A stretch of 64,000 nucleotides of DNA from Candidatus Nomurabacteria bacterium RIFCSPLOWO2_01_FULL_42_17 (lineage in GTDB: Bacteria; Patescibacteriota; Minisyncoccia; Phycocordibacterales; UBA9973): assembly GCA_001785985.1 (NCBI GenBank), contig MFVE01000005.1, positions 16,556-80,555 on the forward strand. Reading direction: 5' to 3'. Within the stretch, counting starts at the first letter, position 1, and each line of letters opens with the position of its first letter. Below are positions 3,601 to 62,797 of this stretch, in pieces. Below the pieces are notes generated by a model that worked only from the letters and a program-made list of their open reading frames with translations, was not told where the DNA came from and searched no databases. A program made the position numbers and the translations under genes.

Positions 3601-4004
3601 CGTTCTACGCCGTTAATGATAAAAGTTCCGTGCGAAGTCATCAAAGGAAACTCAGACATAAAAATCTCTTGTTCTTTCACTGTGCCTAAAATTTTATTCG
3701 TCAATTTTACTCGCGCCTTCAGCAACCCTTGGTAAGAGAGCTTGTTGATTTTTGAATTATTTTCGTCCATCTTCGACTCACCGAGAGAAAAAGAAGTGAA
3801 TTCGAGTTGAAACTTTTTACCGGAATAATCATTGATAGGAGAAAATTCTTTGAAAACTTCGCCAATACCCTCTTCTATCAGCCACTTAAAAGATTTGATC
3901 TGCGCTTCGATCAAATTTGGAAATTCTACTAGCGGTTTTTTATACCTTGAAAAATACTTCTTCGGACGCTTGGTTATTGTATGCATATTGCTTGATCCAA
4001 ACAA
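699..4004 (-). CDS. rpoB: DNA-directed RNA polymerase subunit beta
   Basis: 1101-aa ORF with RpoB hallmarks throughout (…[37 protein letters not shown]…). Confidence 0.97.
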
Positions 4005-4157
4005 GGCGATAAAATGCGAAAGAAAAACAGACGAAAAAATGCTTTTCTTCAGCTTCTTATGCTTTATTTAGAAATGATTAAGTTAAAACCCTAGTAATAT
4101 AAACCTATAATACACACAGGATTCCATCCGATACTCAATCAATGAATCTCAAGTAGC

Positions 4158-4835
4158 CTACTCTATTTCGTAATTTTTGTCAACTCTTTTCTTCCACTCT
4201 TCTATTTTTTTATGATTTCCAGAAAGTAGAACTTTTGGAACTTTGTAGTTTTTGTTTTTGTATTTCAAAACTTCCGGACGGGTATAGACTTCACTACTAG
4301 AGACTCTTTCTTCTTCTAATGATTCATATTTACCCAAAACTCCGGGAATCTGCCGAGAAATAGAATCAATCAAAACCATGGCTGGAAGTTCTCCACCAGT
4401 CAATACATAATCCCCTATCGAAATCTCTTCTGCGCGCAATATTTTTTGCACTCGAGCATCTATGCCTTCATATCTACCGGAAATCAGAATTATGTCCGTA
4501 TATTTCTTGGCAGAAGTTTTCGCGTATTTTGTCGTGAATTTTTTACCACTGGTTGAGAATATAATAGTTTTTAGCTTGTAGCTTGTAGCTTGTAGCTTTT
4601 TATAAATAGCTTGAACAGCTTTCAAAATAGGTTCAGCGCGCATAACCATTCCGGGCCCCCCGCCATAAGGCTTGTCGTCTACTGGCTTGTAATTATTTTT
4701 GGGTGCTTTTATAAAATCTCTAGGATTATAAAAAAGAATTTTAATCTTTTTATCCTTGATCGCCCGCCCAATAATAGATTCTCTTAAATAAGAATCAAAC
4801 ATCTCCGGAAAAATTGTGATTATATGAAAACGCAC
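4158..4835 (-). CDS. trmD: tRNA (guanine37-N1)-methyltransferase
   Basis: MRFHIITIFPEMFDSYL…YGGGPGMVM… is the TrmD SPOUT fold. It contains an in-frame AGCTTGT x3.5 repeat insert. Confidence 0.9.
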   Translation of the reverse strand: MRFHIITIFPEMFDSYLRESIIGRAIKDKKIKILFYNPRDFIKAPKNNYKPVDDKPYGGGPGMVMRAEPILKAVQAIYKKLQATSYKLKTIIFSTSGKKFTTKYAKTSAKKYTDIILISGRYEGIDARVQKILRAEEISIGDYVLTGGELPAMVLIDSISRQIPGVLGKYESLEEERVSSSEVYTRPEVLKYKNKNYKVPKVLLSGNHKKIEEWKKRVDKNYEIE

Positions 4836-7824: not shown

Positions 7825-7825
7825 C

Positions 7826-9751
7826 ATGTTGAAAAAAATTAAATCGAAAATTAAATTAGGGTTGTGGATAGTATTTCCAATAATTCTGGGCGTTTCGTTG
7901 GCGTCGTTCACATTGCTGGTTTTTAAAAATTTTAATGGAGAAAAAACGATTCAGCCTGAGGGCAACGTAGCGGCAGTAGCACAAGCGGCAGTAGAAGAAA
8001 AACCAAAATATTTCTATTTGAACAAGACAAGTGAGAAACACAGCGAGGAACTCAAAGTCGGGGCCTTGGCATACTTGGTCGGCGACCTAAACACTGGCGA
8101 GGTGATCTTGGCAAAAAATCAAAACCAAAAACTTCCGATTGCTTCGATTTCTAAACTCATGACTGCGCTAGTGACAAATGAGATAATGACATCTGATGAT
8201 ATTGCGCAAGTAAGCAAAAAAGCGCTCCACACCGAAGGCACCAATGGCGAGCTTCGCCTGGGAGAAAAAATAAAAACTTCGGAACTTTTGTATCCACTCC
8301 TTTTGGAATCTAGCAATGACGCGGCCGAAGTGTTGGCGGAGCATTTCGGACGGGATTCTTTTATAAGGAAAATGAATCAGGAAGCGCAAAATCTGAAAAT
8401 GTCTGATACGAAGTACGAAGACCCTAGCGGACTCTCCCCCAACAATCAATCCACCGTTTCTGACATATTCAAACTGGCGGGATATTTGAATCGAGAAAAA
8501 GGAGAACTGCTTTCAATAACAAATAAAAGAAGTTTCTCCAATAAAAAGCACAGCTGGTCGAACATCAGCCAATTCTTGCACAAGGACGGTTACTTCGGAG
8601 GAAAGAGCGGATACACTGACCCCGCCCGAGAGACGGTCGTTTCACTCTTTTCCCTTCCCCTCGCAAAGTCCGGCACTCGCCCCATCGCGATCGCCCTACT
8701 CCACAGCCCCAATCGCTCGAAAGATATATCGAATATTTTAAACTACTTGGAAAAAAATATTTATTACGGGGGAGAAGCTGATGCAAGCACTGATTGGATA
8801 CAGCAAAAAATAGGAGCGCCGAATATCAAAGACCCGGATTTTGTCACGCTGACTTTTGGCGGCGATCTGATGCTCGACCGCGGAGTCAGAGCTTCAGTCA
8901 TAAAAAATTTCAACAACGACTATTCCGCGCTTTTTGAAAAATTAGCAATGCTGAAAAAATCAGACATAGTTTTCGGGAACCTAGAGGGCACCGCTTCGGA
9001 CCAAGGCAGAGATATTCACAATTTATATTCTTTTAGAATGGACCCCGCCGTTGTGCCCGCTATGAGAGGTGCGGGTATTAGTATCCTGTCTGTCGCCAAT
9101 AATCACATCGGAGATTGGGGACGTACTGCATACGTTGATACTCTAGCGCGCTTGAAAGAAAATGAAATACTTTATACTGGCGGCGGAAATAATAAAAAAG
9201 AAGCTGAAACACCTACGATTATCGAAAAACATGGAATGAAAATTGGATTCTTGGGATTCTCGGACGTAGGGCCGAGCTCTATGGAAGCCGGAGTGGACAA
9301 GGCGGGACAACTCCTTGCTAACGACCCGCGTTTTGGTGAAATAATCCAAAATGCTTCGAAACAAGTTGATCATCTTGTAGTTTCTCTCCACTTCGGCGAT
9401 GAATACAAGAACAAGCATAACGCCCGGCAAGAATATTTAGCCCACAAAGCAGTAGATAATGGGGCGAAAATAGTAATAGGACATCATCCACATGTCATAG
9501 AAGATACGGAAATTTATAGCAGAAAAGATTGCACTCACAGTTCGTGCATGAGTTTTATCGCTTATTCGCTCGGGAATTTTATCTTTGACCAATCTTGGAG
9601 CAAGCCCACAATGCAGGGCATGCTTCTCCAGATAAAACTAAGCAAGGACGGCTCGATGACAGCGAAAAAAGATACTGTGCAATTAAATTCCGCCTTCCAA
9701 CCGGATCAAATAATCAAAGACAAGGAAGAAAAAGTTAAGTTTCAGGAATAG
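7826..9751 (+). CDS. Membrane-anchored D-alanyl-D-alanine carboxypeptidase (S11/PBP5-like) fused to a CapA/PGA_cap (poly-gamma-glutamate capsule synthesis, metallophosphatase-like) domain
   Basis: N-terminal TM segment. SxxK (ASISKLM), SxN (ESSND) and KTG-like (GGKSGYT) motifs. The C-terminal half (TLTFGGDLMLDRGV…VANNHIGDWG…SLHFGDEY…GHHPHV) is CapA-like. Confidence 0.7.
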   Translation: MLKKIKSKIKLGLWIVFPIILGVSLASFTLLVFKNFNGEKTIQPEGNVAAVAQAAVEEKPKYFYLNKTSEKHSEELKVGALAYLVGDLNTGEVILAKNQNQKLPIASISKLMTALVTNEIMTSDDIAQVSKKALHTEGTNGELRLGEKIKTSELLYPLLLESSNDAAEVLAEHFGRDSFIRKMNQEAQNLKMSDTKYEDPSGLSPNNQSTVSDIFKLAGYLNREKGELLSITNKRSFSNKKHSWSNISQFLHKDGYFGGKSGYTDPARETVVSLFSLPLAKSGTRPIAIALLHSPNRSKDISNILNYLEKNIYYGGEADASTDWIQQKIGAPNIKDPDFVTLTFGGDLMLDRGVRASVIKNFNNDYSALFEKLAMLKKSDIVFGNLEGTASDQGRDIHNLYSFRMDPAVVPAMRGAGISILSVANNHIGDWGRTAYVDTLARLKENEILYTGGGNNKKEAETPTIIEKHGMKIGFLGFSDVGPSSMEAGVDKAGQLLANDPRFGEIIQNASKQVDHLVVSLHFGDEYKNKHNARQEYLAHKAVDNGAKIVIGHHPHVIEDTEIYSRKDCTHSSCMSFIAYSLGNFIFDQSWSKPTMQGMLLQIKLSKDGSMTAKKDTVQLNSAFQPDQIIKDKEEKVKFQE

Positions 9752-9774
9752 TACTGAGGCAAGACCTCAGTGTT

Positions 9775-11925
9775 CTATTTCGCGATCTGGGTGGCTTCTT
9801 CGAATTTTACAGAAAGGAGCTTGGAGGCGCCGTTCGTGCCGATGGTGACTCCATAGAGCACGCCGGCGCGAGACATCGTCTCGCGATTGTGAGTGACGAC
9901 GATGAGCTGAGAGTGTTTGGAAAGTTTTTCGAGCATATCTCCGTATTTGCGGGAATTTGATTCGTCGAGCGCCGCATCCGTCTCGTCCAAGACAAGAAAT
10001 GGCGGAGGGTTTACTTGCGACATTGCAAACAAAAGCGCGATGGACGTGAGCGATCTCTCGCCTCCAGAGAGAGCGTGAAGCTCTTTGACCTTTTTGTGTG
10101 GCAGAGAAACATTTATATCTATTCCCTGCTCTGGAACAGTTTCTTCCATTGCCTCGCCATAGCCTTCGGCGTCGGCGTCGGCGGGTTCGTCTAGATCATC
10201 TTCAATACTTTTTTTCCTCTTTTCTGGTACAACGACAGCCAAAGACCCTGTCCCCCCGCCAAACATCAGCGAGAAAAATTCTTGGAATTCAACATTTATT
10301 TTTTTAACGCCCTCTTTAAATTCCACATCTATTTTCTCTTTCAGATCGGCGATGAGTTTTTGCAAAGATTCGATGCTTTTAGTCAAATCTTCCATTTCTT
10401 TAACCAAAAATTCATCCCTCTCGGAAACTTCCTTAAATTCTTTCATAATTTCCGCGCCACTGCCCATACCCGCATCTTCCAACTTTATTTTTAGGCGTTC
10501 AATTTTTTTCTTTTGCTCTTCCGACGGATTATTTTCATTACTTTCTGTAATTTGATAATCCTTGTAAGCCAAAACTTCCTGTCCGATGAGCGCCACACCT
10601 TCCTTGATCTCATTATGAAATGCCTCCGCCCGGCTCTTAAGATTTGCTTCCTTTATGTGGACAAGTTCCAAGGCGGAAGATAACTCCTGATGCCTAACTT
10701 TAAAGCTAAATCTTTCTCGTTCCAAATCGCGCAAGTCTTCCATCTCTTTATTTATGGCCTGTTTTAACGCTTCTATCTGACTAGTCAAACTTTTTTCTTT
10801 ATTTTCTATCTCCCTCACTTGCGCCAAAATATCAGTTTGCGAGTTTTTTAATTCTATTAATTCTTTCTCGCTGTTTTCTCTATTTTCTATCTGTTCTTTG
10901 CTGATCTCGCCTAATTCTTTTCCACAAGTCGGACATCGGCCAGAAATTTTAACCCTGTTCGCTTTTGCTTCAATCATTCCTTCTATTCGCCCCAGTTTGC
11001 GCTCTAATTCGCTTTTTAACCCACGATTTTCATTTAATTTCTGCTCCACTATTTTTAATTCTGCTATTTTTTTGTTTCCCTGAGCGGAATTAGCATCTTC
11101 GGTGTGAGAAATTTTTACAGAAACATTTTTTAATTCATCCGTGATTGCCCTCTTTTCAGCTGATAAATTTTCCTTCTCTGCATCTAAATAAACACTTTCT
11201 TTTTTTAGATATTCTCTATAAAGAACACCTAACTCCTTTTGCATTTCTTTCACTTTCTCAAATTTTTCCACCTGTTTCTTCAAAAAATTCAAATGGGGAG
11301 CATTTTCTCGGCGCAACATTCCTACTTCTTTCATATTTTCTTCTGTCCTTTCCAATTTCCTGACAGAATCTTTTATTTTGTACTGGTAAATTTTGAGTCC
11401 GAGCGCGTCTTCCACCATTTCTTTTCTATCCTTTGGGCTGGCATTCAAAATCCTATCTGCTTCGCCCTGCGAGATGATGTGATGTCCGGATGAGCCGATG
11501 TTGACTGATGCCAAAAGATTGTGAATATCTTTTAGACGCACTTCCGTGCCATTTAAAATATATTTATTTAATCCATCTGAAAAAACTTCGCGAGAAATAC
11601 TGATCGTGTCATAATTTAAATTTATATTATCTCCTCCGTCATTTTCGAGCTTGAAAATCTTGTCAGAATTATCAAAATGGATCACGACGGACGCGCCCCT
11701 CCCTTTAGGTAGATTTTTAGACCCTTTAAAAATAAGATCCAGGCCCGACTTGCCGCGCATAGACTTCATCGACTGCTCGCCTAACACATAGCGGATAGCC
11801 TCCACCACGTTTGATTTCCCAGAGCCATTCGGACCGACGACGCAGACGATACTGTTCTCGAACTCCAAAATAGTTTTTTGAGCAAAAGATTTAAAGCCAT
11901 TTAATTCTAGTTTTTTGAGTCGCAT
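9775..11925 (-). CDS. SMC-family ATPase (716 aa) with SMC-type heads and a central CxxC zinc-hook in the coiled coil
   Basis: N-terminus MRLKKLELNGFKSFA…VVGPNGSGKSN (SMC Walker A). C-terminus LSGGERSLTSIALLFAM…LVLDETDAALD (ABC signature, Walker B/D-loop). Mid coiled coil has ISGRCPTCGKEL, a Rad50/SbcC-like hook. Confidence 0.75.
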   Translation of the reverse strand: MRLKKLELNGFKSFAQKTILEFENSIVCVVGPNGSGKSNVVEAIRYVLGEQSMKSMRGKSGLDLIFKGSKNLPKGRGASVVIHFDNSDKIFKLENDGGDNINLNYDTISISREVFSDGLNKYILNGTEVRLKDIHNLLASVNIGSSGHHIISQGEADRILNASPKDRKEMVEDALGLKIYQYKIKDSVRKLERTEENMKEVGMLRRENAPHLNFLKKQVEKFEKVKEMQKELGVLYREYLKKESVYLDAEKENLSAEKRAITDELKNVSVKISHTEDANSAQGNKKIAELKIVEQKLNENRGLKSELERKLGRIEGMIEAKANRVKISGRCPTCGKELGEISKEQIENRENSEKELIELKNSQTDILAQVREIENKEKSLTSQIEALKQAINKEMEDLRDLERERFSFKVRHQELSSALELVHIKEANLKSRAEAFHNEIKEGVALIGQEVLAYKDYQITESNENNPSEEQKKKIERLKIKLEDAGMGSGAEIMKEFKEVSERDEFLVKEMEDLTKSIESLQKLIADLKEKIDVEFKEGVKKINVEFQEFFSLMFGGGTGSLAVVVPEKRKKSIEDDLDEPADADAEGYGEAMEETVPEQGIDINVSLPHKKVKELHALSGGERSLTSIALLFAMSQVNPPPFLVLDETDAALDESNSRKYGDMLEKLSKHSQLIVVTHNRETMSRAGVLYGVTIGTNGASKLLSVKFEEATQIAK

Positions 11926-51747: not shown

Positions 51748-52968
51748 TTAATCCGCTAAAACACAGATAACCACGGTTTCATTATGAAAAGCTGAATTGC
51801 ATTGCTCTATATTTTTGACCTCGCCTCCAAGTGGAGCTTGCTCGCCATAAGTATAAAAACCAATCAGAGGAACTTCTTTGCCGATCGCCTGCTGGATCGC
51901 ATTTATTTCGTCTCCGGACTTTTCGCCAAAAAGTTTATTGCGGGCTATGCAGTTGAAGATGATGACTGCTTTTGGAGCACTGCCTTCTAATTGCGCGACT
52001 GCATTTTCGGCGGCAATTTTTGCCACTTTCACCGCTTCTTCGCGACTGCCCACCATCAAACGGACTTCTGAACCTTCTGGGATTTCCGCGGCGCAAGTGA
52101 TCGATCCATGTTCATCCACCGTGATCGGGTCTCGAATCAATAATTCATCGCTGCCGGCTACCTTCATCCCGAGCGGATAGGTGATGGCCAGTTTTGCTAG
52201 CGCTTCGGTACGCATTATTTTTGCTTCTTCTCCAAAGTAATCCTCGTAGATCTTGACTGCTGGAGCGCCATTAATTTCATGAATAACCGCGCCCTCCGAT
52301 TTAGTAACTTTCATGGACTCTCCGACCGGAATCCATCCATGCTTGACTCCGATACCGATCTTGAAATTGCCAACCAGCCCGAGCCCCACGACTGCGCCGG
52401 AATACACTTTGTCATTGACATACTGATATGTCTTCTTAAAAGCAAAATCGTCTCCCGAAGCTCCGCCCACGACCGGAAAATGAGCGCCGAGAGAATCTAA
52501 CACCCCACGCACGATGTCCGCACCATTCCCGACCAGTACGTCAGGCATCATCATGAAAGCCTTGAGAGAATCACCAGCTTGCTCTTTTACTTTGTCAGCA
52601 GCCATCTTTCCAGCCAACCTCGGATTCGCTAAAATATTTTCTCCGACGCCGACAAAATATTTTATTTCCGGAGATTTTATCGCCATGATAGCGACAGAAT
52701 GTTCTTTCATCGGGCCAGCAGTCGTGATCTCTCCGGAAGTCGAAGAGCCAACAAGTAGCGCCTCTTTTGCTACTGATCGCACGCCATCGATCACCTTCTG
52801 TTGATCATATTTAACCGAAGAAAAAACAATCAATAAATCTGGATTCTTGTCACCCAGCTGATCTATCGCATCTTGGCAGGCATTCACGCCGACTGCATAA
52901 GAATCGTCTCCGTATGCCATTCCCACACTCGCCTTCATTCCTTTTGTTTCCATCCCGTTAGAAATCAT
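51748..52968 (-). CDS. FIST-domain (FIST_N + FIST_C) sensory protein. True start is probably the second ATG at 52953 (METKG…).
   Basis: 406 aa with the Gly-rich FIST architecture. The first five codons coincide with the TTCTAACGGG motif that directly precedes the ATG of pilB. Confidence 0.7.
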   Translation of the reverse strand: MISNGMETKGMKASVGMAYGDDSYAVGVNACQDAIDQLGDKNPDLLIVFSSVKYDQQKVIDGVRSVAKEALLVGSSTSGEITTAGPMKEHSVAIMAIKSPEIKYFVGVGENILANPRLAGKMAADKVKEQAGDSLKAFMMMPDVLVGNGADIVRGVLDSLGAHFPVVGGASGDDFAFKKTYQYVNDKVYSGAVVGLGLVGNFKIGIGVKHGWIPVGESMKVTKSEGAVIHEINGAPAVKIYEDYFGEEAKIMRTEALAKLAITYPLGMKVAGSDELLIRDPITVDEHGSITCAAEIPEGSEVRLMVGSREEAVKVAKIAAENAVAQLEGSAPKAVIIFNCIARNKLFGEKSGDEINAIQQAIGKEVPLIGFYTYGEQAPLGGEVKNIEQCNSAFHNETVVICVLAD

Positions 52969-53056
52969 ACCATCTGTACAAATATTGCTATGTATAAAGA
53001 CAGTTAATTATTGTTAATTTTATAATATTATCCCGTTCTGTAAATTTCTAACGGGA
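52953..53056. promoter_or_regulatory. Leader hairpin from inverted TCCCGTTAGAAA motifs ending at the (second) ATG of the FIST gene
   Basis: Minus-strand mRNA: TCCCGTTAGAAAT…(about 80 nt)…ATTTCTAACGGG-AUG-GAA. Same architecture as the pilB leader. Confidence 0.5.
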
Positions 53057-53121
53057 TCCATAAAAAAATTGATTATCTGATAACAGCATTTATTATACCA
53101 ACTGATAGTAAATAGCGCTAG

Positions 53122-53208
53122 CGGATGAGGTGAGATTCGAACTCACGGTCCTTTTTAGGGGACGGCGGTTTAGTAAACCGCTACCTTAAGCCACTCGGTC
53201 ACTCATCC
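53122..53208 (-). tRNA. Class II tRNA (Ser-like: long variable arm, discriminator G) with apparent anticodon ACU (loop UUACUAA)
   Basis: Reverse complement folds with acceptor GGAUGAG/CUCAUCC, D-stem ACC/GGU, anticodon stem GCGGU/ACCGC, variable arm GUCC…GGAC and T-arm GUGAG-UUCGAAU-CUCAC. The A34 anticodon is unusual, so the assignment is tentative. Confidence 0.55.
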
Positions 53209-53298
53209 TGAACACAGAAAAGTATAGCAATAAAAATTGGAAAATAGCAAAAATATGCAAAAATATGCTAGAGTAATTGAGTTTCAGGATATTTTAAA

Positions 53299-53387
53299 GG
53301 AGCCGTGTTGGAGTGGTCTATCAAGCATCTTTGCTAAAGATGTAGGGGCTTTAAAACCCCTCGAGGGTTCGAATCCCTCCGGCTCCG
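53299..53387 (+). tRNA. tRNA-Ser (anticodon GCU)
   Basis: Acceptor GGAGCCG/CGGCUCC, anticodon stem CAUCU/AGAUG, loop UUGCUAA, long variable arm, T-arm GAGGG-UUCGAAU-CCCUC and discriminator G. Confidence 0.85.
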
Positions 53388-53392
53388 CCTTT

Positions 53393-53644
53393 TTAATTTT
53401 TACGATGTTTTTTCTTTCTCCTGAAAAGAAAATTAAAGATCACACTATGTCTGACCTCTTCCAGCATTTCTTTGGTAGTGTCTCCGATGCTGTCAATATC
53501 CTTTTCTACCTTGCGCATAATCTCAGATAAAACATTGGTGGCGCGAATAAGGTAAAACAAAAATATAAAGGCCATGATTCCCAAGACGACGAAGCCGACG
53601 GAAGAAATAAAAAAGAAAATTTGTGATTCTATAATTGCATCCAT
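53393..53644 (-). CDS. Hypothetical small membrane protein
   Basis: 83 aa with one TM helix and a basic C-terminus. Weak. Confidence 0.3.
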   Translation of the reverse strand: MDAIIESQIFFFISSVGFVVLGIMAFIFLFYLIRATNVLSEIMRKVEKDIDSIGDTTKEMLEEVRHSVIFNFLFRRKKKHRKN

Positions 53645-53754
53645 AATTCATATTGTATCATATTAGTTATATATAGGATACTATATATCAACGGCATTCG
53701 GATATTAAATAAGTAAACTTATTCATACTCCTCATTTGTTGCTATAATTCACAA

Positions 53755-55965
53755 ATGGAACTGCACGACAAACTAGAGGTGAAATTCCGTCTAGATCCAA
53801 TCCAAAGAAGAGCTCTCTCGAAGCTCAAGCTCTTTTCAGTTGCTGATTTGCTTTTTCACTTCCCTATTCGCTACAGCGACATCAGTGAGGTAAAAAAGAT
53901 TACCGAACTAACCCCGGGAGACATGGCGACGGTATATGGAAAAGTCTCAAAATTAAAAACCAAAAAAAGTTTTCGCTCAAGAATTCCTATGGCTGAGGGC
54001 GAAATTGCGGACTTGTCCGGTAAAATAAAAATAATTTGGTTCAACCAAGCCTATTTAGCCAAGATGCTCCACGACGGAGATAATGTGAAATTAACGGGCA
54101 AAGTAACAGCAAGTAAGAATGGTGCCTATCTGGCCAATCCAGAATTTGAAAAGATGAAAAATATGCCGATAGATTCGCACGATAGTCTTTTTACACCCTC
54201 ACCCCGGCCCTCTCCCGAAGGGAGAGGGAGTCGGGAGACGACTGGATTATCCTATCCTATCTACGCTGAAACTCGCGGAATAACTAGCAAGTGGTTTTAT
54301 CATGCAATAGAAAAAATACTAAGAGAAAAAACTTTGGATAATATTACAGACTATATACCCGGCGATATTTTAAAAAAATACAGTTTACCAACTCTGAAAA
54401 CCGCGCTGATCTGGATTCATAAGCCAAAAAATGCCAAGGACGCGCAGTCGGCGCGCAAAAGATTCGCCTTCGAAGAAGTTTTCTGCATTCAGCTCGAGCG
54501 CCAACATGACAAGTTTGAGTACAGAAAAAATAAATCTTTCCAAGTAAAAACTTCTGAGAAAAATGTGGCGGATTTTTTAAAACGCTTTCCCTTTGAACCC
54601 ACAAATTCTCAGAAAAAATCGATTGAAATAATCTTGGGAGATATGGCAAAAACTTTCCCAATGTCTCGACTATTGGAGGGCGACGTCGGAAGTGGAAAAA
54701 CTGCGGTGGCTGCCACCGCTAGTTATGTGACAGTGCAAGAACGTCCGAGTGGGCAAAATTTTGGCAATTTGCAAGTTGCCTATATGGCACCGACGGAAAT
54801 TTTAGCAACTCAGCATTTTGAATCTTTTATCGAATATTTCAAACACTTACCGATAAATATCGGACTCATCACTGGGTCTGGTTGTAGAAAATTCCCCTCC
54901 AAAACTCAGGTGTACGGCCCCGCCGGAGGCGGGGTAAACTGGACGACAATCTCGCGAGCACAACTTTTGAAATGGGTAGCTAATGGAGAAATACCTATTC
55001 TCATAGGCACGCACGCACTGATTCAGAAAACGGTTAAATTTAAAAACTTGGCTCTGGTCGTGATAGATGAACAACACAGATTCGGCACAGCCCAAAGAAG
55101 AAAACTGGTTCGCAAAGACAACGTTGCTCCGCATTTGCTCTCGATGACGGCCACCCCTATCCCCCGCACGCTCGCACTCACTATTTATGGAGACCTCGAC
55201 CTCTCACTCCTCGATGAAATGCCCGCCGGCAGAAAAGAAATAATTACAGAAATTATAACGCCAAATAAACGCGAAGAAACCTATGAAAAAATAAAAAAAG
55301 AATTAAAAGACGGCAGACAGCTCTATGTGATTTGCCCGAGAATTTTCGAGCCAAATCCAGAAAAAGAATTAGCGCTCAATGTAAAATCTGCAGTAGAAGA
55401 AGCTAAAAGATTAAAAAAAGGGGTTTTCAAAGAATATGAAATAGGCGTACTCCACAGCAAGATGAGCAAAGAGAAAAAAGAAGAAGTAATGGAAGATTTC
55501 GTTTCCGGTAAAATAAATATTTTGTGCGCGACATCAGTGGTGGAAGTAGGAGTAAATGTGCCAAACGCCACTGTAATAATAATAGAGGGCGCGGAGCGGT
55601 TCGGCTTGGCGCAACTCCACCAGCTTCGTGGACGCGTAATCAGAAGTACACATCAAGCTTACTGCTTTATTTTTGCAGACGCTAAAAGCGACAAGACCAT
55701 AGCTAGATTGAAAGCCTTAAAAACTGCAAAAAATGGTTTTGAACTTGCAGAATTAGACCTGACTCTCCGCGGCGCGGGCGAACTCGGAGGAACCAAACAA
55801 TGGGGCATCACCGACCTCGGAATGGAAGCGATAAAAAATATAAAAATGGTCGAAGCCGCCCGCACGGAAGCGATTCGCCTAATAGAAACCGACCCCGAAC
55901 TTTCTAAGTATCCGTTATTAAAATCTAAGGTAAAAACTAAGGCAGGAGAATTCCACTTTGAGTAA
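53755..55965 (+). CDS. recG: ATP-dependent DNA helicase RecG
   Basis: Wedge/OB N-terminus, DEAH-type helicase motifs (…GDVGSGKTAVA…, …VIDEQHRFG…, …QLRGRV…). Contains an in-frame GC-rich palindromic insert at 54194-54230. Confidence 0.92.
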   Translation: MELHDKLEVKFRLDPIQRRALSKLKLFSVADLLFHFPIRYSDISEVKKITELTPGDMATVYGKVSKLKTKKSFRSRIPMAEGEIADLSGKIKIIWFNQAYLAKMLHDGDNVKLTGKVTASKNGAYLANPEFEKMKNMPIDSHDSLFTPSPRPSPEGRGSRETTGLSYPIYAETRGITSKWFYHAIEKILREKTLDNITDYIPGDILKKYSLPTLKTALIWIHKPKNAKDAQSARKRFAFEEVFCIQLERQHDKFEYRKNKSFQVKTSEKNVADFLKRFPFEPTNSQKKSIEIILGDMAKTFPMSRLLEGDVGSGKTAVAATASYVTVQERPSGQNFGNLQVAYMAPTEILATQHFESFIEYFKHLPINIGLITGSGCRKFPSKTQVYGPAGGGVNWTTISRAQLLKWVANGEIPILIGTHALIQKTVKFKNLALVVIDEQHRFGTAQRRKLVRKDNVAPHLLSMTATPIPRTLALTIYGDLDLSLLDEMPAGRKEIITEIITPNKREETYEKIKKELKDGRQLYVICPRIFEPNPEKELALNVKSAVEEAKRLKKGVFKEYEIGVLHSKMSKEKKEEVMEDFVSGKINILCATSVVEVGVNVPNATVIIIEGAERFGLAQLHQLRGRVIRSTHQAYCFIFADAKSDKTIARLKALKTAKNGFELAELDLTLRGAGELGGTKQWGITDLGMEAIKNIKMVEAARTEAIRLIETDPELSKYPLLKSKVKTKAGEFHFE
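54194..54230. repeat. GC-rich palindromic element inserted in frame in recG (CACCCTCACCCC…CCCTCTCCCgaaGGGAGAGGG)
   Basis: Same family as the rnr and ligA inserts. Encodes …SPRPSPEGRGS…. Confidence 0.8.
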
Positions 55966-56090
55966 AAAGCCGCCTGCCCGCAATGCTAAAGCATAGCTTT
56001 TGCAGGCGGGGGAATTCCATTTTGAATGATGTTATCACTTTGAGACAGCCGTCAATTTTGATAACATTAATATTTGTTAATAACAGGTGC
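55948..56090. repeat. Direct repeat 1 (GAATTCCACTTTGA-hairpin CCGCCTGC…GCAGGCGG-GAATTCCATTTTGA), doubling as a terminator between recG and the Pif1-like gene
   Basis: About 72 bp at roughly 93% identity to 58927-58998, with weaker similarity for another 60 bp. 8-bp GC stem followed by T-run on the minus strand. Confidence 0.7.
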
Positions 56091-56095
56091 AAGCG

Positions 56096-57700
56096 CTATT
56101 CCTCTATCAGCCCTAACTTTACAAGTCTAGAACGAATCCCGCCGACTTGGCGACCAGTCTGCACAGAAATATTTTTTAGGGACTTTCCACTTTTAAACGC
56201 TTGCGCGACTTCTGTTTCTTCGATCTGCGTCCATTTTTTATAAGCATTTTGATGCTTCTCGCGGATTTGTTCTAGCCGACCAATTGCTGGCGCTTCTTTG
56301 ATTAAAGAACTTGTTTCAGGTTTCCATTTTCCACCCAAGGTGATGATAAAATTCTTTCGCATTTTTTCGTTATCTTCGGAGGAAATTCTCGCAAATACTT
56401 CGCAGGCTTGTTTCGACCCTTCTCGAAAAGCAACATCTTTTTCTAAAATCTGCGGATGAACTTTAAAAGCGCGCTCATTTATACCCAAAAGATAGAGACC
56501 CGACAAACGCCGCACCCGAGATAGCGCCACATATCCCTGCCCAAATTCAAACACTTCTGAAAGATCCATCACCGCGGCATCCATACTCATCCCCTGACTC
56601 TTGTGCACTGTGATGGCCCACGCCAGGCGCAATGGAACTTGGGTAATCTTCGCTTTGATTTTTCCATTTTCTTCAACACTCCAATCCATCGGCGCTACAG
56701 TTATATTTCTCCCATTTTTTGTTTTAATAATCGGGTATCCAGTAAATTGTTCAAACTCTATCACTGTCCCTAGTGTCCCATTCACAAATCTTTCTTTCGG
56801 GTTGTTTTTGGTGCACATCACCACGGCGCCCACTTTGAGTTCTAAATCCTCTGGAGAAAGACATCCCCTCTTGAGCGCCGAGATGATTGCTTCCCCACCG
56901 CTCGCAGTCATTAGAAAATGCTTTGATTCCATTTCTATTTTTCCGAGCATTCCCCCATTCACCTGATCCACATTAACATTATGCGAAAAAAGTTTCGGTA
57001 TATTTTCGGGAAAATCCATAGAGACGCTCATGCGCGAATGTATCTGATCAAGATGCGGCTTCTCCATACTACCGCGACGAATAGCGGACAAAACTGAAAG
57101 AAAATCCGCATCATCCTGTCTATGTTGCTCGGTGAGATAGCAGACAACAGGCGAGAGCCTCCGCCAAACATCCGAATCAAAAGCAAAACGCGTTTTATCT
57201 CTTATTCCCTTTGTTTCTTGTTTGATTAAACTTTGTTGCGCGCTTTTTTCATATAATCTTTTTTCTATGGGCGGAAGCTGAAAAAAGTCTCCAACTAAAA
57301 TAACCTGTAGGCCACCAAAAGGCAGGGCGCTCTGCTTGATCTCTCGGCAAACTGCATCAATCATCAATAGAGTTTCGGCTCGAAGCATTGACACCTCATC
57401 GATGATGAGGACGCGAGTTTTACCAATGCGTCTGTTGAGATATTCACTGCTCCCTATTTTATCTAAATCATATTTCGTCAGAGTTTCTTTTATGCCTATT
57501 CCGCTCCAAGAGTGTATGGTCATGCCACCGATATGAGTCGCCGCGATGCCAGTCGAAGCAGTGATAGCCGGCTCTATATCGCGAGCGCGCAAATATGAAA
57601 CAAATTGATTGATAGTATAAGTCTTGCCAGCGCCCGGTTCACCCGTCAGGAAAACATTCGCCCCGGTTTTTAGTATAGCCAACGCTTCATTTTGAGTCAT
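56096..57700 (-). CDS. Pif1/RecD-family (AAA_30 + UvrD_C_2) helicase with C-terminal HTH-like domain
   Basis: Walker A TGEPGAGKTY, Pif1 motifs (…LIIDEVSML…, …VGDFFQLPP…), and C-terminal …SLKNISVQTGRQVGGIRSRLVKLGL. Confidence 0.8.
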   Translation of the reverse strand: MTQNEALAILKTGANVFLTGEPGAGKTYTINQFVSYLRARDIEPAITASTGIAATHIGGMTIHSWSGIGIKETLTKYDLDKIGSSEYLNRRIGKTRVLIIDEVSMLRAETLLMIDAVCREIKQSALPFGGLQVILVGDFFQLPPIEKRLYEKSAQQSLIKQETKGIRDKTRFAFDSDVWRRLSPVVCYLTEQHRQDDADFLSVLSAIRRGSMEKPHLDQIHSRMSVSMDFPENIPKLFSHNVNVDQVNGGMLGKIEMESKHFLMTASGGEAIISALKRGCLSPEDLELKVGAVVMCTKNNPKERFVNGTLGTVIEFEQFTGYPIIKTKNGRNITVAPMDWSVEENGKIKAKITQVPLRLAWAITVHKSQGMSMDAAVMDLSEVFEFGQGYVALSRVRRLSGLYLLGINERAFKVHPQILEKDVAFREGSKQACEVFARISSEDNEKMRKNFIITLGGKWKPETSSLIKEAPAIGRLEQIREKHQNAYKKWTQIEETEVAQAFKSGKSLKNISVQTGRQVGGIRSRLVKLGLIEE

Positions 57701-58082
57701 GATTTTTTCTTAAACTAGATAAATATTCTTTTATTCTTTCTCTATCTTCATTTTCTTTATCGCCCTTAAAGTATATTTCAATATACATAAATTCAAATCT
57801 ATCATTGTGATAGGCGTAAATAATCCTAATATTTCTATTTCTCAAAGACTTACATAGTATACGCGCTTTTACTATCTTAACATTTTCATCACTATACATT
57901 GTTACAAAATTCTTGCCGAAACCTGTCGGATTTTCAAAAATAAAACGCTCAAATATTTTAATATCGTCATTTAAACTTCTAAATTTCTTAAGAAGCTGAT
58001 CAAACTCTTTTTTAAACTCGGGCAAGTAGTTAGAGTGGTTCATATTCTCCCACAGAAGTTTCTTCTGGTCGATAAAAAGCAA
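57687..58082 (-). CDS. Putative toxin of a toxin-antitoxin pair (small RelE/ParE-like-sized protein downstream of a Panacea-domain antitoxin)
   Basis: 131 aa, overlaps the upstream HTH-Panacea gene by 53 nt. Lys/Arg-rich core …RIIYAYHNDRFEFMYIEIYFKGDKENEDRE…. Confidence 0.4.
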   Translation of the reverse strand: MLFIDQKKLLWENMNHSNYLPEFKKEFDQLLKKFRSLNDDIKIFERFIFENPTGFGKNFVTMYSDENVKIVKARILCKSLRNRNIRIIYAYHNDRFEFMYIEIYFKGDKENEDRERIKEYLSSLRKNHDSK

Positions 58083-58821
58083 ACTCGTATTCCAATTGTT
58101 CTTTATCTTTTGCTATTTTCCAAGGAGTATCTATGTGCGATAATTCAGATATCTTTTTCGCTGTCATATCAGACAACCTATCAAGCTCCCAATCAATATG
58201 GGCAAGCTCCTGCGCTGACAAAGCTGAAAGATCAATACCAATATTGGGATTTATTAAATACTTCGTCTGGTCATATTGATAAAACTTACTTTTTATAGCT
58301 TCAACTTTACCATCATCCTCTAACTCTTTTATTATTTTAGAAAAAATCACTGGCGTAGGGCCATGAGTATTTTTGATATAACGTGCGCCTATTAACTGTT
58401 CATCAAATTTCTCATAATAATCAAAATCAATAAAATATAACAATTTATAAAGCACGGTCTGGCCAATGTTTGGCTTACCTCCTACTTTTGCAAGAATATA
58501 TAAAAGCACTTGTTTAAATTTTTCTACTCTCTCTTGTGGAACTGAAATACGGTCTGCTACTTTAGGGTTGATTTTTTTTATCTTCTTATCTTTTTTGAAA
58601 ATAACTTCAGGTGTAGAAACTTTGCCATTTTGAATATCTATAATAGAAATATCAAAAATACTACTCAACTCATCAGCTTCTTTCAAAGCAAGCTCTCTTT
58701 TCCCCTGTTCAAAGGCAATATATGAAGAACGGGAAATTCCCAACTTTTTTGCGATTTCCAACTGAGAAAAACCTCTCTCTATGCGAAGTGATTTAATAAA
58801 TGCAAAATATTTATTAGACAT
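58030..58821 (-). CDS. HTH (XRE/Cro-C1) + Panacea (DUF4065, SocA-like) domain antitoxin
   Basis: N-terminal …RGFSQLEIAKKLGISRSSYIAFEQGKR…. C-terminal …GKPNIGQTVLYKLLYFIDFDYYEKFDEQLIGARYIKNTHGPTP… typical of Panacea domains. Confidence 0.65.
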   Translation of the reverse strand: MSNKYFAFIKSLRIERGFSQLEIAKKLGISRSSYIAFEQGKRELALKEADELSSIFDISIIDIQNGKVSTPEVIFKKDKKIKKINPKVADRISVPQERVEKFKQVLLYILAKVGGKPNIGQTVLYKLLYFIDFDYYEKFDEQLIGARYIKNTHGPTPVIFSKIIKELEDDGKVEAIKSKFYQYDQTKYLINPNIGIDLSALSAQELAHIDWELDRLSDMTAKKISELSHIDTPWKIAKDKEQLEYEFAFYRPEETSVGEYEPL

Positions 58822-58926
58822 ACCTTAATGTTATTCTAACAATGTCAGAAAGTCAAGCTTGCATGTGTATAACTATTTGACATCTTAATTCCCCTACTCA
58901 AACAAAAAGTTAAATCAAAAGTTTCT

Positions 58927-59062
58927 GAATTCCACTTTGAATAAAAGCTGCCTGCCCGCAATGCTAAAGCATAGCTTTTGCAGGCGGGGAGAATTTCATT
59001 TTGAGTAATTGTAATGTTTTTACTACACTGACGGCCGTTAGTTTGGTAAACATTAATAATTA
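58927..59062. repeat. Direct repeat 2 (same element as 55948-56090), downstream of the GNAT gene
   Basis: See 55948-56090. Confidence 0.7.
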
Positions 59063-59551
59063 GCTTTGATATTTAGGTAGATTTTCTAAAACCATAACTA
59101 CACGAGGTGTACCGTTACCAAAGTAGTTTTCCTTTCGCTCTGTAATTTTGAACCCAAAAGATTCATACAACTTAACCGCCGCTTTATTCTCCGGGTGGGT
59201 CACAAGCCAAATCTTTGAAGCATCCGAGACTTTAGAAAGGAACTGCTTCATGGCTTCCTTGCCTAAACCTTTGCCTTGAAAATCTGGATCAATACCCAGC
59301 ACATTAAGATAAACCACATTGTCCTCCTGCTTTTCATACTGAATCTGCCCGACAATCTTATCCCCAATTTTTACCATATAAAAAAACTTGTTACCTCCGG
59401 AAATTTGTTCTTTGGTGGTTTCGGGCCAATAAGTCGATCCAGCGAGTTTTTGTTCTAAAGCAAAAAAGGTTTCAAGATCTGCTTCAGTACCCTCTACTAG
59501 AGTAATCGGTTCTAATTCCTGTGGATTGTTTTGCTTACTTAAATTTTCCAT
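59060..59551 (-). CDS. GNAT-family N-acetyltransferase
   Basis: …VGQIQYEKQ…LGIDPDFQGKGLGKEAM… is the acetyl-CoA binding motif A. Confidence 0.85.
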   Translation of the reverse strand: MENLSKQNNPQELEPITLVEGTEADLETFFALEQKLAGSTYWPETTKEQISGGNKFFYMVKIGDKIVGQIQYEKQEDNVVYLNVLGIDPDFQGKGLGKEAMKQFLSKVSDASKIWLVTHPENKAAVKLYESFGFKITERKENYFGNGTPRVVMVLENLPKYQS

Positions 59552-59560
59552 ATATTTGGT

Positions 59561-59633
59561 GTCCGCCCTCTTGGACTCGAACCAAGGACAAGACGAGTAT
59601 AAGTCGTCTGCTCTACCAACTGAGCTAAGGGCG
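59561..59633 (-). tRNA. tRNA-Ile (anticodon UAU) candidate
   Basis: Reverse complement folds with acceptor CCGCCCU/AGGGCGG, D-arm GCUC-AGUUGGUA-GAGC, anticodon stem GACGA/UCGUC, loop CUUAUAC, T-arm CUUGG-UUCGAGU-CCAAG and discriminator A. Confidence 0.75.
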
Positions 59634-60296
59634 GATATTATTACTAATTCGAGAAATATACTTAAGGCTCATCACTATATATTCCCACAAATCTCTATTA
59701 TCAAACATAACACAGCAAGTCCCTTTTCCAAAGCCATTTTTATAAGTTATTGAGCTTAATTTAGTCCTTTTAATATATGACTTTCTAAACTGACTGACTG
59801 GTATTTTAAGCTCTTTTGACCAAAAACCAATACTCTTTTTGATATTCATATCAGAATATAAATGCAATTTTATTTTTAAATTTTTTCTTTTAACATTAAA
59901 AAGTTCTAACCATTTGATGAAAAATTTAAGCATCGATGGATTTGTATTTGTAAGAACCACCGAACCCTTCTGCATTTTAGTACCTTCTCCCCAATATAAA
60001 AAGAGTCCTAATAAGAATATCTCCCGCTCAGAGAAAACACCTATATCTTTAGAAACTTTTTGAAAAACTTTTTCCAAACGAGCTTCTCTTTTCGCTCGCA
60101 TTGTATTCCTAAAACGCTCAATGCGAATAGGACTGTCTGCTTGCAATTCTCTAATTCTTTTTTCTGATAATGGCATATTGTAAAGCCACCCGCTTAAGGT
60201 GCTTTTGCTTATTCCAAGCTTATCTTTTATTTGGCTATAACTCATGCCTTTTCGGCGCATGATTAGAGCCTTTTGTTTGTCTAATTTCCTTGCCAT
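59625..60296 (-). CDS. HTH-domain protein with possible LAGLIDADG-like endonuclease motif (3' end abuts/overlaps tRNA-Ile)
   Basis: N-terminal resolvase-type HTH (…GMSYSQIKDKLGISKSTLSGW…). Central …IFLLGLFLYWGEGTK… resembles a single LAGLIDADG motif. Tentative. Confidence 0.3.
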   Translation of the reverse strand: MARKLDKQKALIMRRKGMSYSQIKDKLGISKSTLSGWLYNMPLSEKRIRELQADSPIRIERFRNTMRAKREARLEKVFQKVSKDIGVFSEREIFLLGLFLYWGEGTKMQKGSVVLTNTNPSMLKFFIKWLELFNVKRKNLKIKLHLYSDMNIKKSIGFWSKELKIPVSQFRKSYIKRTKLSSITYKNGFGKGTCCVMFDNRDLWEYIVMSLKYISRISNNIRP

Positions 60297-60365
60297 AAAA
60301 ATATGAACCTATGGGTGATAGGTACTGGTATAGTATACCATGGTTCGCATATTATAGTAAACATA

Positions 60366-60860
60366 CTACACTCCCCTTTTAGTTCTTAAAGCTACAATCG
60401 CTTTTTTGATGGTATCATACATGACTGGAAGCTCTAAGTAGTCGATGACAATTGCAAACCAAGAAAGCCAAGCAGGTATCATGATCGCTGCGGTGCCCGT
60501 AAATTGCGCATAAATAATCTCATCGGTAATCCAAAACAAATGGAGCCACTGGGAGTTAATGAGGAAAAGAAAAAGTATACTGCGCCACTTTGCACTCTGG
60601 GCACCCTGGCCTAGAGTATATTGATGAATATAGAAAATAGAAGCTGAAATAATCGCCGGTATTTCTGTATAATCTATCAACGCAATGACAGTATTCCAAA
60701 ATGCTCCCGGATTCCAAAAAGAATGATCAAATGCTCTCAAGAAAACTACATTCGTGGTCATCCAATATAGATGCACAATCTGCAACAGAAAAAGGATGGC
60801 CGTGATGGGCGCGATGACTTTATAATTTCTGTCGTACCATTGCCAAAATTTTTTCAGCAT
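60366..60860 (-). CDS. Hypothetical integral membrane protein
   Basis: 164 aa, Trp-rich, with 4 predicted TM helices. Confidence 0.35.
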   Translation of the reverse strand: MLKKFWQWYDRNYKVIAPITAILFLLQIVHLYWMTTNVVFLRAFDHSFWNPGAFWNTVIALIDYTEIPAIISASIFYIHQYTLGQGAQSAKWRSILFLFLINSQWLHLFWITDEIIYAQFTGTAAIMIPAWLSWFAIVIDYLELPVMYDTIKKAIVALRTKRGV

Positions 60861-62797
60861 TAAATTGAAACTGGCGCGGGAGTGATGATTTCTTTTTTCT
60901 TTAGCACTATTCCATGGAGAGTCAATATCTTTTCATATTCCTCTTGTTCTAGAGTTTCCACTTCGATGAGCTGATGCGCTATGGCGTCAAAAGCTTTTCG
61001 ATGCGCGGTCAAAACTTGTTCGGCAGATTTCAATCCATCGCTGATGATTCTAGAAACTTCCGCATCAACTTTAGTGGAAACGGATTCAGAATATTCTTTT
61101 TCTATCAACTCGCCATACTGTGACCTGCCACCACCGGAGACGAGCGCGATCGGACCGATAATATCCGACATCCCCCACCTGGTAACCATGGCCCGAGCCA
61201 GATTTGTCGCCACTTGCAAGTCAGAGGATGGACCAGTCGTTATGTCTCCGAAGATCATTTGTTCCGCCACATATCCACCGAGCGACATCGCGATGTCATC
61301 AATAAATTCTTTTTTAGATTGCAGACGTCGCTCTTCGAGCGGAAGTTTCAAGGTATACCCGCCGGCATTGCCCCTGGCGATAATAGACACTTTGTGCACT
61401 GGATCTGCATAAGGCAAAACCGAAGCCACCAGCGCATGACCGGCTTCATGATACGCAGTGATTTCTTTTTCTTTTTTAGAAAGCAAATGGCTTTTGCGCT
61501 CCGGCCCGAGCATAACTTTCTCGATCGCTCGAATGAGATCAAATTGAAAAACTTTCTTGCGATTCTCCCGAGCGGCCAGAATAGCGCCTTCGTTCATCAG
61601 CGAATACAGATCTGCGCCCGAAAATCCGGGAGTGCGTTCGGCAATTAATTTCAAATTGATATCTTCTGCCAGCGGTTTTTTTATCGCATGAATTTTCAAT
61701 ATTTCCTCGCGATCGGCGCGATCCGGCAAATCAAGCAATACTTTTCTGTCAAAACGACCGGGACGGATAAGCGCTGGATCGAGCACATCTGGACGATTGG
61801 TCGCCGCCATCACGATGACTTTATCATTCGGCTCAAAGCCGTCCATCTCCACCAATATTTGATTTAGGGTCTGCTCCCGCTCATCATTGCCTCCGCCAAA
61901 TCCCCCTCCGCGGGTTCGTCCGATCGCGTCTATCTCATCCACGAAGATTATGGCTGGAGCCGCTTTTTTAGCCATTTTGAAAAGATCTCGCACTCGGGAC
62001 GCTCCAACACCCACGAACATTTCCACAAACTCACTTCCAGATAAGTGAAAAAATGGCACTCCGGCTTCTCCGGCGACGGCTCGCGCCAGCAGTGTCTTGC
62101 CTGTTCCCGGAGCTCCGGTCAGAATAACACCTTTCGGAATTCTCGCTCCGATATCTAGAAACTTTTTAGGACTTTTCAAAAAATCCACAATTTCTTTTAG
62201 TTCCTCTTTCGCCTCTTTGCATCCGGCCACGTCTTTGAAAGTCACCCGGTTGTTCTTATCATTCGGATCAGTGATGCGCGCTTTGGACTGGCCGAAAGAA
62301 AGCGCCTGCATGCCAGCGCCCCGCACCTGCCGCGATAAATACCAAAAGAAAAGCAGAATAAAAACTATGGGCAATAGAAATGGAAGAAGATTTAAAAGCA
62401 CAAACATAAATCCGCTTTCGTTTTTTATTTCTATTTCTGTTTTTGCCAACACTTCGCCCGTGACACCATAATTAAAAAGTGTCTGTGACAAAGATGAGCC
62501 GACTTCTTTCTTGGATGTTTTGACCTCGTCGTTTTGATAAGTGATCGTCAGTTTTTCTCCTTCAACTAAAATCTTTTTTACTTCTCCTATGGATACGCTT
62601 TTAGCCAAATCCGATATCGGAATCTCCGGAGCAACTTTGCCGGTATCAGACACAGCCAAATATATCGCCGTAATGAACATGAAGATAATAACCGTGCTGG
62701 CAATACTGCCCCCAAAGTTGCCCATTCCTTTCCCCTTTTTACCTTTATTTTGGCCCGTGTTCTGATTGGCTTTTTTATTTAGAAAATTAAAATCCAT
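60860..62797 (-). CDS. ftsH: ATP-dependent zinc metalloprotease FtsH
   Basis: AAA+ Walker [13 protein letters not shown], and HEAGH zinc site (…[10 protein letters not shown]…). Confidence 0.95.

Follow-up and report, generated by a model that had tools for sequence, protein, structure and literature searches.

We examined a repeat-bracketed gene block in a 64-kb window (the whole stretch of DNA analysed) from Candidatus Nomurabacteria bacterium RIFCSPLOWO2_01_FULL_42_17. In this window, two composite direct repeats (~55912-56078 on the left and 58891-59064 on the right) flank a Pif1-family helicase, a small open reading frame (ORF) and a gene with a helix-turn-helix (HTH) and a Panacea domain, all downstream of recG. 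A preliminary description of the same DNA, made from the sequence alone, had proposed that the block was either an integrated defence or addiction islet of exactly three genes with att-like ends or a native locus flanked by two copies of a genome-specific terminator repeat. For comparison, we collected the recG loci of 80 relatives (labels L0xx designate the relatives' loci or contigs, and labels P0xxx the protein homologs retrieved) and computed interval statistics from the 54 of them that contain both recG and ftsH. The nearest relative available has a RecG identity of 85-86%, and none is at the species level; the same locus is, in addition, present on two European Nucleotide Archive (ENA) metagenome contigs. 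Pfam searches and an ORF scan recovered the three genes between the repeats (Pif1 helicase, 131-aa ORF and HTH-Panacea gene), and the GNAT gene, tRNA-Ile(UAU) and HTH ORF previously listed beyond the right repeat were all recovered as well. The features of the locus, in window coordinates, are as follows:

53755-55965, plus strand: recG, 736 aa (Pfam RecG_wedge, DEAD, Helicase_C and RecG_dom3_C).
55966-56029, plus strand: second partial recG tail of the left repeat, AAAGCCG ... GGGGAATTCCATTTTGAATGA, which reads K-A-G-E-F-H-F-E-stop.
56032-56067, plus strand: solo operator-like palindrome of 36 nt, TTATCAC...GACAGCCGTC...TGATAAC, with a strong hairpin fold (nhmmer E 1.3e-8).
56096-57700, minus strand: Pif1-family SF1B helicase, 534 aa, with a conserved C-terminal extension (PF05970, E 1.3e-33).
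57687-58043, minus strand: putative toxin, ~118 aa from Met14 of the 131-aa ORF (homolog alignment).
58030-58821, minus strand: PanA-type antitoxin with an N-terminal XRE-type HTH and a Panacea (DUF4065) domain (PF13274, PF01381).
58828-58856, minus strand: candidate sigma-70-like promoter of the toxin-antitoxin (TA) operon, TTGACT-17-TAACAT (consensus scan alone).
58891-58944, plus strand: displaced recG 3' end of 18 codons, PLLKQKVKSKVSEFHFE-stop, with no gene body (translation).
58945-59008, plus strand: second partial tail of the right repeat, AAGCTG ... GGAGAATTTCATTTTGAGTAA.
59016-59061, plus strand: degenerate operator-like palindrome, 78% identical to the left copy over 32 nt, with a strong hairpin fold and below the nhmmer threshold.
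59060-59551, minus strand: GNAT (RimI-like) acetyltransferase (PF00583, E 7.7e-18; TIGR01575, E 1.1e-15, below cut-off).
59561-59634, minus strand: tRNA-Ile(UAU) (ARAGORN and Rfam).
59625-60296, minus strand: HTH ORF with a faint LAGLIDADG-like signal (HTH_23, E 6.1e-6).

The two repeats lie where the preliminary description had placed them, with a homology that reaches further to the left, and each is a mosaic of three parts: the end of a recG gene, a second partial tail that carries a hairpin, and an operator-like palindrome. The 14-mer GAATTCCAYTTTGA occurs four times with 0-1 mismatch (starting at 55948, 56012, 58927 and 58991), spaced 64 nt from start to start within either repeat. It encodes EFHFE and a stop codon, the C-terminus of RecG, whose motif ...YPLLK.K....EFHFE is invariant across the best 120 RecG homologs. 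The first copy is the true recG end, and the last 18 codons of this resident gene, PLLKSKVKTKAGEFHFE-stop (55912-55965), constitute the left arm of the left repeat; 13 further recG codons precede EFHFE-stop at the right repeat. The four EFHFE-stop copies differ among themselves at synonymous positions only, so that each must derive from a once-functional tail. The second tail is broken by a 37-nt palindromic element at 55973-56009 in the left repeat (covariance-model match of 60.5 bits) and by its counterpart at 58951-58987 in the right one (61.0 bits). The last 23 nt of the right second tail are 100% identical to the recG end of L011. Identity between the repeats is 67% in the 54-nt coding tail, 96% (44/46) in the linker and hairpin, 81% in the 21-mer of the second tail and 61% in the downstream palindrome, or 74% overall across ~170 nt; the earlier estimate of a core ~93% identical between more divergent flanks was, therefore, essentially right. 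The 38-nt hairpin core is present in the 64 kb in two identical copies, where none is expected by chance. Furthermore, both copies share one inner-stem variant and linker, a variant that was found in no other copy among 84 Nomurabacteria loci.

The coding tail of the right repeat has a foreign affinity. The relic peptide PLLKQKVKSKVSEFHFE is identical to the real RecG tails of P0019, P0023 and P0050. At the DNA level, the relic, which nhmmer matched at E 1.8e-10, shares 93% identity with the L004 recG tail. In the 39 nt that precede EFHFE, it agrees with L004 at 34/39 positions, compared with 25/39 for the median relative and only 20/39 for the resident tail. These counts rule out an in-situ tandem duplication of the resident recG end and, because the relic is closer to L004 than to its own recG, indicate that it is probably the displaced recG end of another lineage. 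The relic and resident tails differ by 7 synonymous and 4 non-synonymous codon changes, the latter falling only where natural RecG tails vary. When we followed the nearest neighbour along recG in sliding windows, the neighbour changed in each window at ~80-87% identity and no breakpoint was located. Displaced recG tails, always in the recG orientation, are also present in at least five other genomes. They bracket a MacAB-like ATP-binding cassette (ABC) transporter in L056 and a MazG-like gene in L024, and short tail-hairpin-tail arrangements are found in L055, L058 and L077; in L081, a hairpin follows a partial second tail and the sequence beyond it is masked. The relic tails of several genomes are all 54 nt or shorter and end at the same place.

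The repeats are embedded in a hypervariable interval. Between recG and ftsH, the 54 relatives have 158 to 7927 bp, which hold 59 ORF clusters, 44 of them singletons. The backbone consists of recG followed, on the opposite strand, by tRNA-Ile(UAU) and ftsH, between which an HTH ORF and a 164-aa gene may or may not be present; in L011, the 3' end of tRNA-Ile lies 3 nt past the recG stop codon. The ten cargo genes of relatives that we tested include a S-adenosylmethionine (SAM) synthetase, an aminotransferase and an oxidoreductase, and no recombinase was found among them. Nor do the genes at 56096-60860 encode integrase, resolvase or transposase domains. The att-like ends of the preliminary description do derive from the end of the flanking gene, but no integrase or recombinase was found to go with them.

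From their distribution, the three genes between the repeats do not look like one mobile unit. The helicase is found at the same position, without the TA pair or the GNAT gene, in L083 (83.5% identity), L043, L051 and L065, where in the last three it immediately follows recG, and the TA pair is found without the helicase elsewhere, in unrelated contexts (L010, L058 and L207-L211). The proposal of an islet of exactly three genes, present or absent as a block, was not supported by this synteny comparison, in which relatives retained the helicase without the TA pair and GNAT, and no empty site lacking the whole block was found among them. In L083, the gene order is recG, a small HTH gene, the helicase, tRNA-Ile, the 164-aa gene and ftsH, and its helicase identity is on par with that of RecG (85.5%). 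In L043, the recG tail, the palindrome and the helicase follow each other in natural succession. In contrast to the helicase, the TA pair is absent from the recG-ftsH intervals of all 54 relatives, as is GNAT, and the GC content falls to 0.31-0.36 over the TA pair and the GNAT gene, which bears out the accessory character previously ascribed to the region. A tblastn search of the 80 relatives' loci retrieved no GNAT homolog, so that this genome is the only one in which the gene was found at the locus.

The helicase (A2917_02315, 100% identity) belongs to a family that is ubiquitous in Paceibacterota, with >8000 matches. An extra C-terminal HTH had been assigned to it, for which we obtained a weak match (HTH_58, E 0.07). 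The defence models of PADLOC gave no full-length match to a defence system for the helicase or its neighbours; all that was recovered were generic, partial P-loop matches (approximately residues 3-147; PDC-S68, RecD-like and others), which lends no support to the defence role considered earlier. We also evaluated the start of the helicase gene, TTCATTTTGAGTCAT (57686-57700), which matches the recG tail at 14/15 positions, as a fifth relic in an array of cassettes. This candidate was rejected because the M-T-Q-x-E-A-L start is conserved across the family whatever the context, and the likeness is, at most, microhomology.

The other two genes make up a TA pair of a known kind. The antitoxin matched SocA_Panacea (PF13274) with an E value of 4.6e-17 and 63.4 bits (cut-off 25.7) and HTH_3 (PF01381) with an E value of 6.1e-12, as in the PanA/PanT type II systems defined by the Panacea domain (Kurata et al., 2022, PMC8832971). 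The small ORF belongs to a family of 1188 homologs, typically ~112 aa long and starting with M-x-H-x-N-x-LPEF, and the homolog alignment places its real start at Met14 (58043). Counted from this start, its overlap with the antitoxin stop is 14 nt (the upstream TTG start would give 53 nt); at its other end, it shares 14 nt with the helicase start. Its AlphaFold2 model (predicted local distance difference test, pLDDT, of 87.6) has two helices, a four-stranded sheet and a C-terminal helix. Searches against Pfam, NCBIfam, PDB and Foldseek returned no significant match, nor was there one to the RelE/ParE/HigB/MqsR toxins, the best profile matches being faint (RelE_StbE, E 0.027 in 1/22 members; PBECR3, E 0.092; DUF4258, E 0.12). 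A homolog in the collection, P0121, is 99% identical. The pairing with the Panacea gene noticed in the preliminary description is conserved as a two-gene module in L010, L058 and L207-L211, and from this conserved pairing we infer that the product of the 131-aa ORF is a toxin. The L010 copy, the only close one among the 54 relatives, is 76.6% identical at the DNA level over exactly 57721-58890, a stretch that also contains the candidate promoter, and lies further downstream rather than in the recG-ftsH interval. The 1.17-kb PanA and toxin pair appears to be a self-contained module that was acquired separately and that is now probably co-transcribed with the helicase. In L207-L211, the pair adjoins a MmeI-type restriction gene; L207 has two tandem HTH-Panacea and small-ORF pairs (2090-4378) by the MmeI-type restriction-modification gene, upstream of rplT and infC.

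The palindrome that closes each repeat resembles the operator of a regulatory gene. The motif precedes a gene for a PaaX-like protein (160 aa, PF20803) in 8 loci, and a further copy follows the gene in L004, L007, L009, L019, L049 and L082; in L004, the gene (11182-11751) has direct copies of the palindrome on both sides. Several genomes, including the window, have the solo palindrome only, as if the PaaX-like gene had been deleted between the copies. A comparable case is found in L083, where a 97-aa ArsR/HTH_5-like gene (7705-8095), located between recG and the helicase, has direct repeats TATTCTG[AG]TATTCTTGAGAATA on either side, so that this small regulator, too, is enclosed by a palindromic motif of its own.

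The hairpin inserted in the second tails is a member of a dispersed family of GC-rich palindromic elements of 35-39 nt, with the consensus CCTGCCCGCAATGC, inner stem, ATA, inner stem' and GCAGGCGGGG. The element forms a 13-bp imperfect hairpin in which 90.6% of the cells are paired, versus 29-45% when the partner columns are slid, and compensatory changes at 4 pairs support the fold. Searches with a profile and then a covariance model identified ~20 copies in 1.35 Mb of Nomurabacteria loci, and an exact-core scan of metagenome contigs at least 128 copies on at least 120 stretches. Among the metagenome matches listed, ~70% are outside long ORFs and about a fifth inside, with 25/128 in one sense frame versus 0 and 2 in the other two; coding copies almost always read P-A-R-N-A...A-G-G. 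Rfam (E <= 1) returned tRNAs only and no match for the hairpin over 52500-61000, the hairpin pattern was not found in viral contigs, and we found no description of the element in the literature searched. In the window, all three in-frame copies are carried by rpoB (699-4004, minus strand):

2034-2121, minus strand: tandem pair of in-frame copies of the element, inside rpoB (covariance model).
3321-3363, minus strand: third in-frame copy of the element in rpoB (covariance model).

Copies are also found in the recG genes of L003, L018, L025 and L061, where in the last three the 39-nt insertion is clean, keeps the reading frame and is not accompanied by a duplication of its target, and each recG insert is essentially unique among 75 aligned recG genes. 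The element is also inserted at slightly differing points of the recG-tail relics of L077 and L081. We ruled out a target-site duplication by the element as the source of the second tails, as none accompanies the in-gene inserts and as synonymous sites alone distinguish the tail copies. The hallmarks of miniature inverted-repeat transposable elements (terminal inverted repeats together with target-site duplication) are absent from the element, as is a GTAG or CGTC tag of the repetitive extragenic palindromic (REP) kind. Speculatively, the element, which lies in frame in rpoB and recG, may represent an undescribed class of coding selfish DNA in these tiny genomes. On the minus strand, the hairpins after the helicase and GNAT genes are followed by CUUUUUAC or CUUUUAUUC and, as judged from this layout, probably double as terminators of the convergent genes, although a consensus terminator scan made no call. 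A second hairpin family (CCCCGTAGTAAGC-TNT-GCTTTACTACTGGGG), which carries a GTAG motif like that of GTAG-tagged REP elements, is located directly 3' of the recG stop codon in L055 (3650-3700), L077 (8115-8160) and L061 (~11270-11330). Other GC-rich palindromic coding inserts (...GTPPSQGER...) are present in a variable loop of RecG in L018, L019, L024, L043 and L049 (in L019, around codon 150 of the gene at 9001-11208), and suggest that several families of in-frame palindromic inserts populate these genomes.

To the right of the block, tRNA-Ile(UAU) provides a conserved landmark between recG and ftsH in most relatives. The window copy is 98.8% identical to that of L014 and ~80% identical to most others, while the 164-aa gene is 61% identical to its L083 homolog and 75% to that of L011. 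The HTH ORF beside the tRNA, previously described as HTH/LAGLIDADG-like, retained its HTH; the LAGLIDADG_3 signal was limited to E 0.055, below cut-off, in the L019 homolog. Homologs of this ORF occupy the same position in, for example, L006, L019, L020, L035, L064 and L076, and its long start overlaps the 5' end of tRNA-Ile by ~10 nt. In two relatives, a truncated 3' fragment of tRNA-Ile(UAU) directly follows the recG stop codon (L050, 3228-3300; L040, ~11182-11200). The L050 fragment has the palindromic element in its would-be T-loop, and ARAGORN detected no intact tRNA on the L050 or L040 contig. On the other side of recG, a tRNA-Ser with anticodon ACU (loop TTACTAA; 53121-53208, minus strand) adjoins tRNA-Ser(GCU), and relatives keep this pair upstream of recG; for a bacterial tRNA-Ser, an A at position 34 is unusual.

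We regard the repeats as, most likely, the scars of recombination at a highly variable spot, and the best reading of the locus is neither an integrase-borne islet nor just a common terminator. Rather, we propose, with a probability of roughly 0.58, that the right repeat marks a recombination junction between lineages within the hypervariable interval, to which a PanA-type TA module was added separately. The composite would have formed directly downstream of recG in Nomurabacteria, where the stop region was followed by a dead second copy with the element and by a solo palindrome, the presumed leftover of a PaaX-like regulator cassette. The left composite, recG and the helicase would be resident, this side resembling L083. 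The relic, the right composite, GNAT and the tRNA variant would have come from a lineage in which they followed their own recG, as suggested by the right side (relic, GNAT, tRNA-Ile variant and 164-aa gene) having other affinities than the left. The 1.17-kb TA module would then have landed at the junction, between the helicase start and the relic. The near-identity of the hairpin and linker could stem from a crossover or gene conversion in this part, or from a strongly conserved element.

Several observations weigh against this proposal. The presumed donor arrangement (recG, composite, GNAT) was in no genome examined; the contigs of P0019 and P0050, whose RecG tails are identical to the relic, have no GNAT downstream, and that of P0121 was not located. 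The comparison also lacks a within-species empty site, its nearest relative standing at 85-86% RecG identity. Homologs of the helicase at 72-75% identity sit elsewhere in other genomes, an indication that the helicase itself moved into the spot at some time. The length of the relic tails (54 nt at most) hints at a non-random, possibly site-specific process, which simple recombination does not predict. Finally, the left second tail and palindrome (56012-56067) and the relic (58891-58944) both match L004 best, as if a circular segment with the helicase and the TA pair had been inserted instead.

Such a Campbell-type insertion is the first alternative to weigh. A ~2.9-kb circle from a related lineage, carrying the palindrome, helicase, toxin, antitoxin and a partial recG end, would have integrated by a single homologous crossover in the shared hairpin or tail, so that the three genes arrived together without an integrase. 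The 67/96/81/61% identity profile, with its near-identical core and diverged flanks, is what a crossover in the core yields, the two L004-like inner halves are contiguous in L004, and L043, with its succession of recG tail, palindrome and helicase, could be the donor type. However, RecG and the helicase are both closest to L083, suggesting a shared history in place, the TA pair and the helicase are never linked elsewhere, and the affinity argument is built on stretches of ~55 nt. For these reasons, we consider the circle unlikely.

A more speculative idea, to which we give distinctly little credence, is that the EFHFE-stop region of recG is a reusable docking site, where cassettes were added serially without a recombinase of their own and folded palindromic hairpins served a trans-acting factor as sites of crossover or recognition. 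This factor could be a recombinase yet to be named or the endonuclease-like ORF by tRNA-Ile. If true, the locus would be an integron-attC-like or homing-like system in bacteria of the candidate phyla radiation (CPR).

The classical integrative islet, a three-gene defence or addiction element whose repeats are attL and attR and whose recombinase is encoded elsewhere or was lost, would account for direct repeats made from the 3' end of a conserved gene beside a tRNA, for the low GC of the TA genes and for the similar tail duplications that bracket cargo in L056 and L024. The lack of integrase, resolvase and transposase domains in the block, its neighbours and the ten cargo genes of relatives, the relatives that carry the helicase without the other genes, and the failure to find anything related in viral contigs, relatives of the Panacea protein included, make it very unlikely.

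Even less can be said for a native locus in which a terminator or palindromic repeat common to the lineage settled twice, independently, at the ends of two genes. The dispersal of the hairpin, the terminator-like layout after the helicase and GNAT genes and the differing insertion points in the relics of L077 and L081 all fit such a history, and the part of the preliminary description that treated the repeat as a recurrent one stands to this extent. But the homology extends beyond the element into the 54-nt recG relic, the second tail and the operator-like palindrome, as expected if the whole composite had been duplicated or imported. Moreover, the two copies have the same linker and the same inner-stem variant, the latter found in no other copy among the 84 loci, and the simple terminator scan made no call, leaving this reading highly improbable. 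Weakest of all is a homing-endonuclease hotspot, in which the HTH ORF beside tRNA-Ile cuts the recG end and repair from foreign templates leaves displaced tails and turns over the cargo: the ORF, with its weak LAGLIDADG_3 signal, does lie by the tRNA here and in relatives, the relic tails are of short length with a common end point, and invariant coding sequences are the type of target that homing endonucleases favour, but the LAGLIDADG match is far below threshold and the ORF is missing from most loci with variable content.

The locus is, in sum, an unusual but explicable mosaic of a known kind of TA system with an uncharacterised partner family, a recombination hotspot and an in-frame palindromic element. 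CPR genomes are very small and have few recognisable mobile elements, and for this reason gene exchange in these bacteria is poorly understood. The locus offers a concrete, sequence-level case of gene shuffling, a hypervariable interval that is anchored on the invariant recG end and whose junctions are marked by displaced gene ends of foreign affinity, with no integrase found. The locus also yields a CPR-wide, uncharacterised partner family of the promiscuous Panacea antitoxin domain and a short, GC-rich palindrome that rpoB and recG tolerate within their reading frames. In metagenome-assembled CPR genomes, this palindrome has an effect on both gene calling and protein alignment, and it could mark recent DNA turnover. 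If the ordinary reading is right, repeat-bracketed blocks in these genomes should not be called mobile islets without synteny checks.

Each component has a counterpart among known systems. As in islands integrated at gene 3' ends (attL/attR), the direct repeat includes the final codons of the target gene, the displaced copy differs from the resident one in lineage affinity, and the site adjoins a tRNA and recurs as a hotspot. Unlike in these islands, no integrase was found in the genes scanned, the cargo of relatives includes ordinary metabolic genes, and the repeats are mosaics into which an operator relic and a dispersed palindromic element are also built. In naturally transformable bacteria, homology-facilitated illegitimate recombination and Campbell-type integration similarly join foreign DNA at a conserved anchor without a dedicated recombinase and leave mosaic flanks; they do not specifically predict the recurrent short recG ends, and the mechanism at our locus is read from sequence patterns. 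The TA pair shares with PanA/PanT systems an antitoxin with an N-terminal HTH and a Panacea/DUF4065 domain, the order of antitoxin first and small overlapping ORF downstream, and the persistence of the two-gene unit across genomic contexts, including beside restriction-modification genes. It departs from them in that the partner is a CPR-wide family of ~112 aa with no match in Pfam, NCBIfam or PDB and that the pair lies directly upstream of, and overlaps, a Pif1 helicase gene. Like Rickettsia palindromic elements, REP sequences and the GC clusters of yeast mitochondria, the palindromic element is a short, GC-rich, dispersed palindrome with a conserved hairpin, whose copies are in some cases in frame in essential genes (rpoB, recG) and in others intergenic, and whose presence varies among relatives. 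Rickettsia palindromic elements are ~100-150 nt long, whereas the element described here is 35-39 nt and its host is a CPR bacterium. REP superfamilies, for their part, carry a GTAG or CGTC tag (PMC3733652), which the element lacks along with terminal inverted repeats and target-site duplications.

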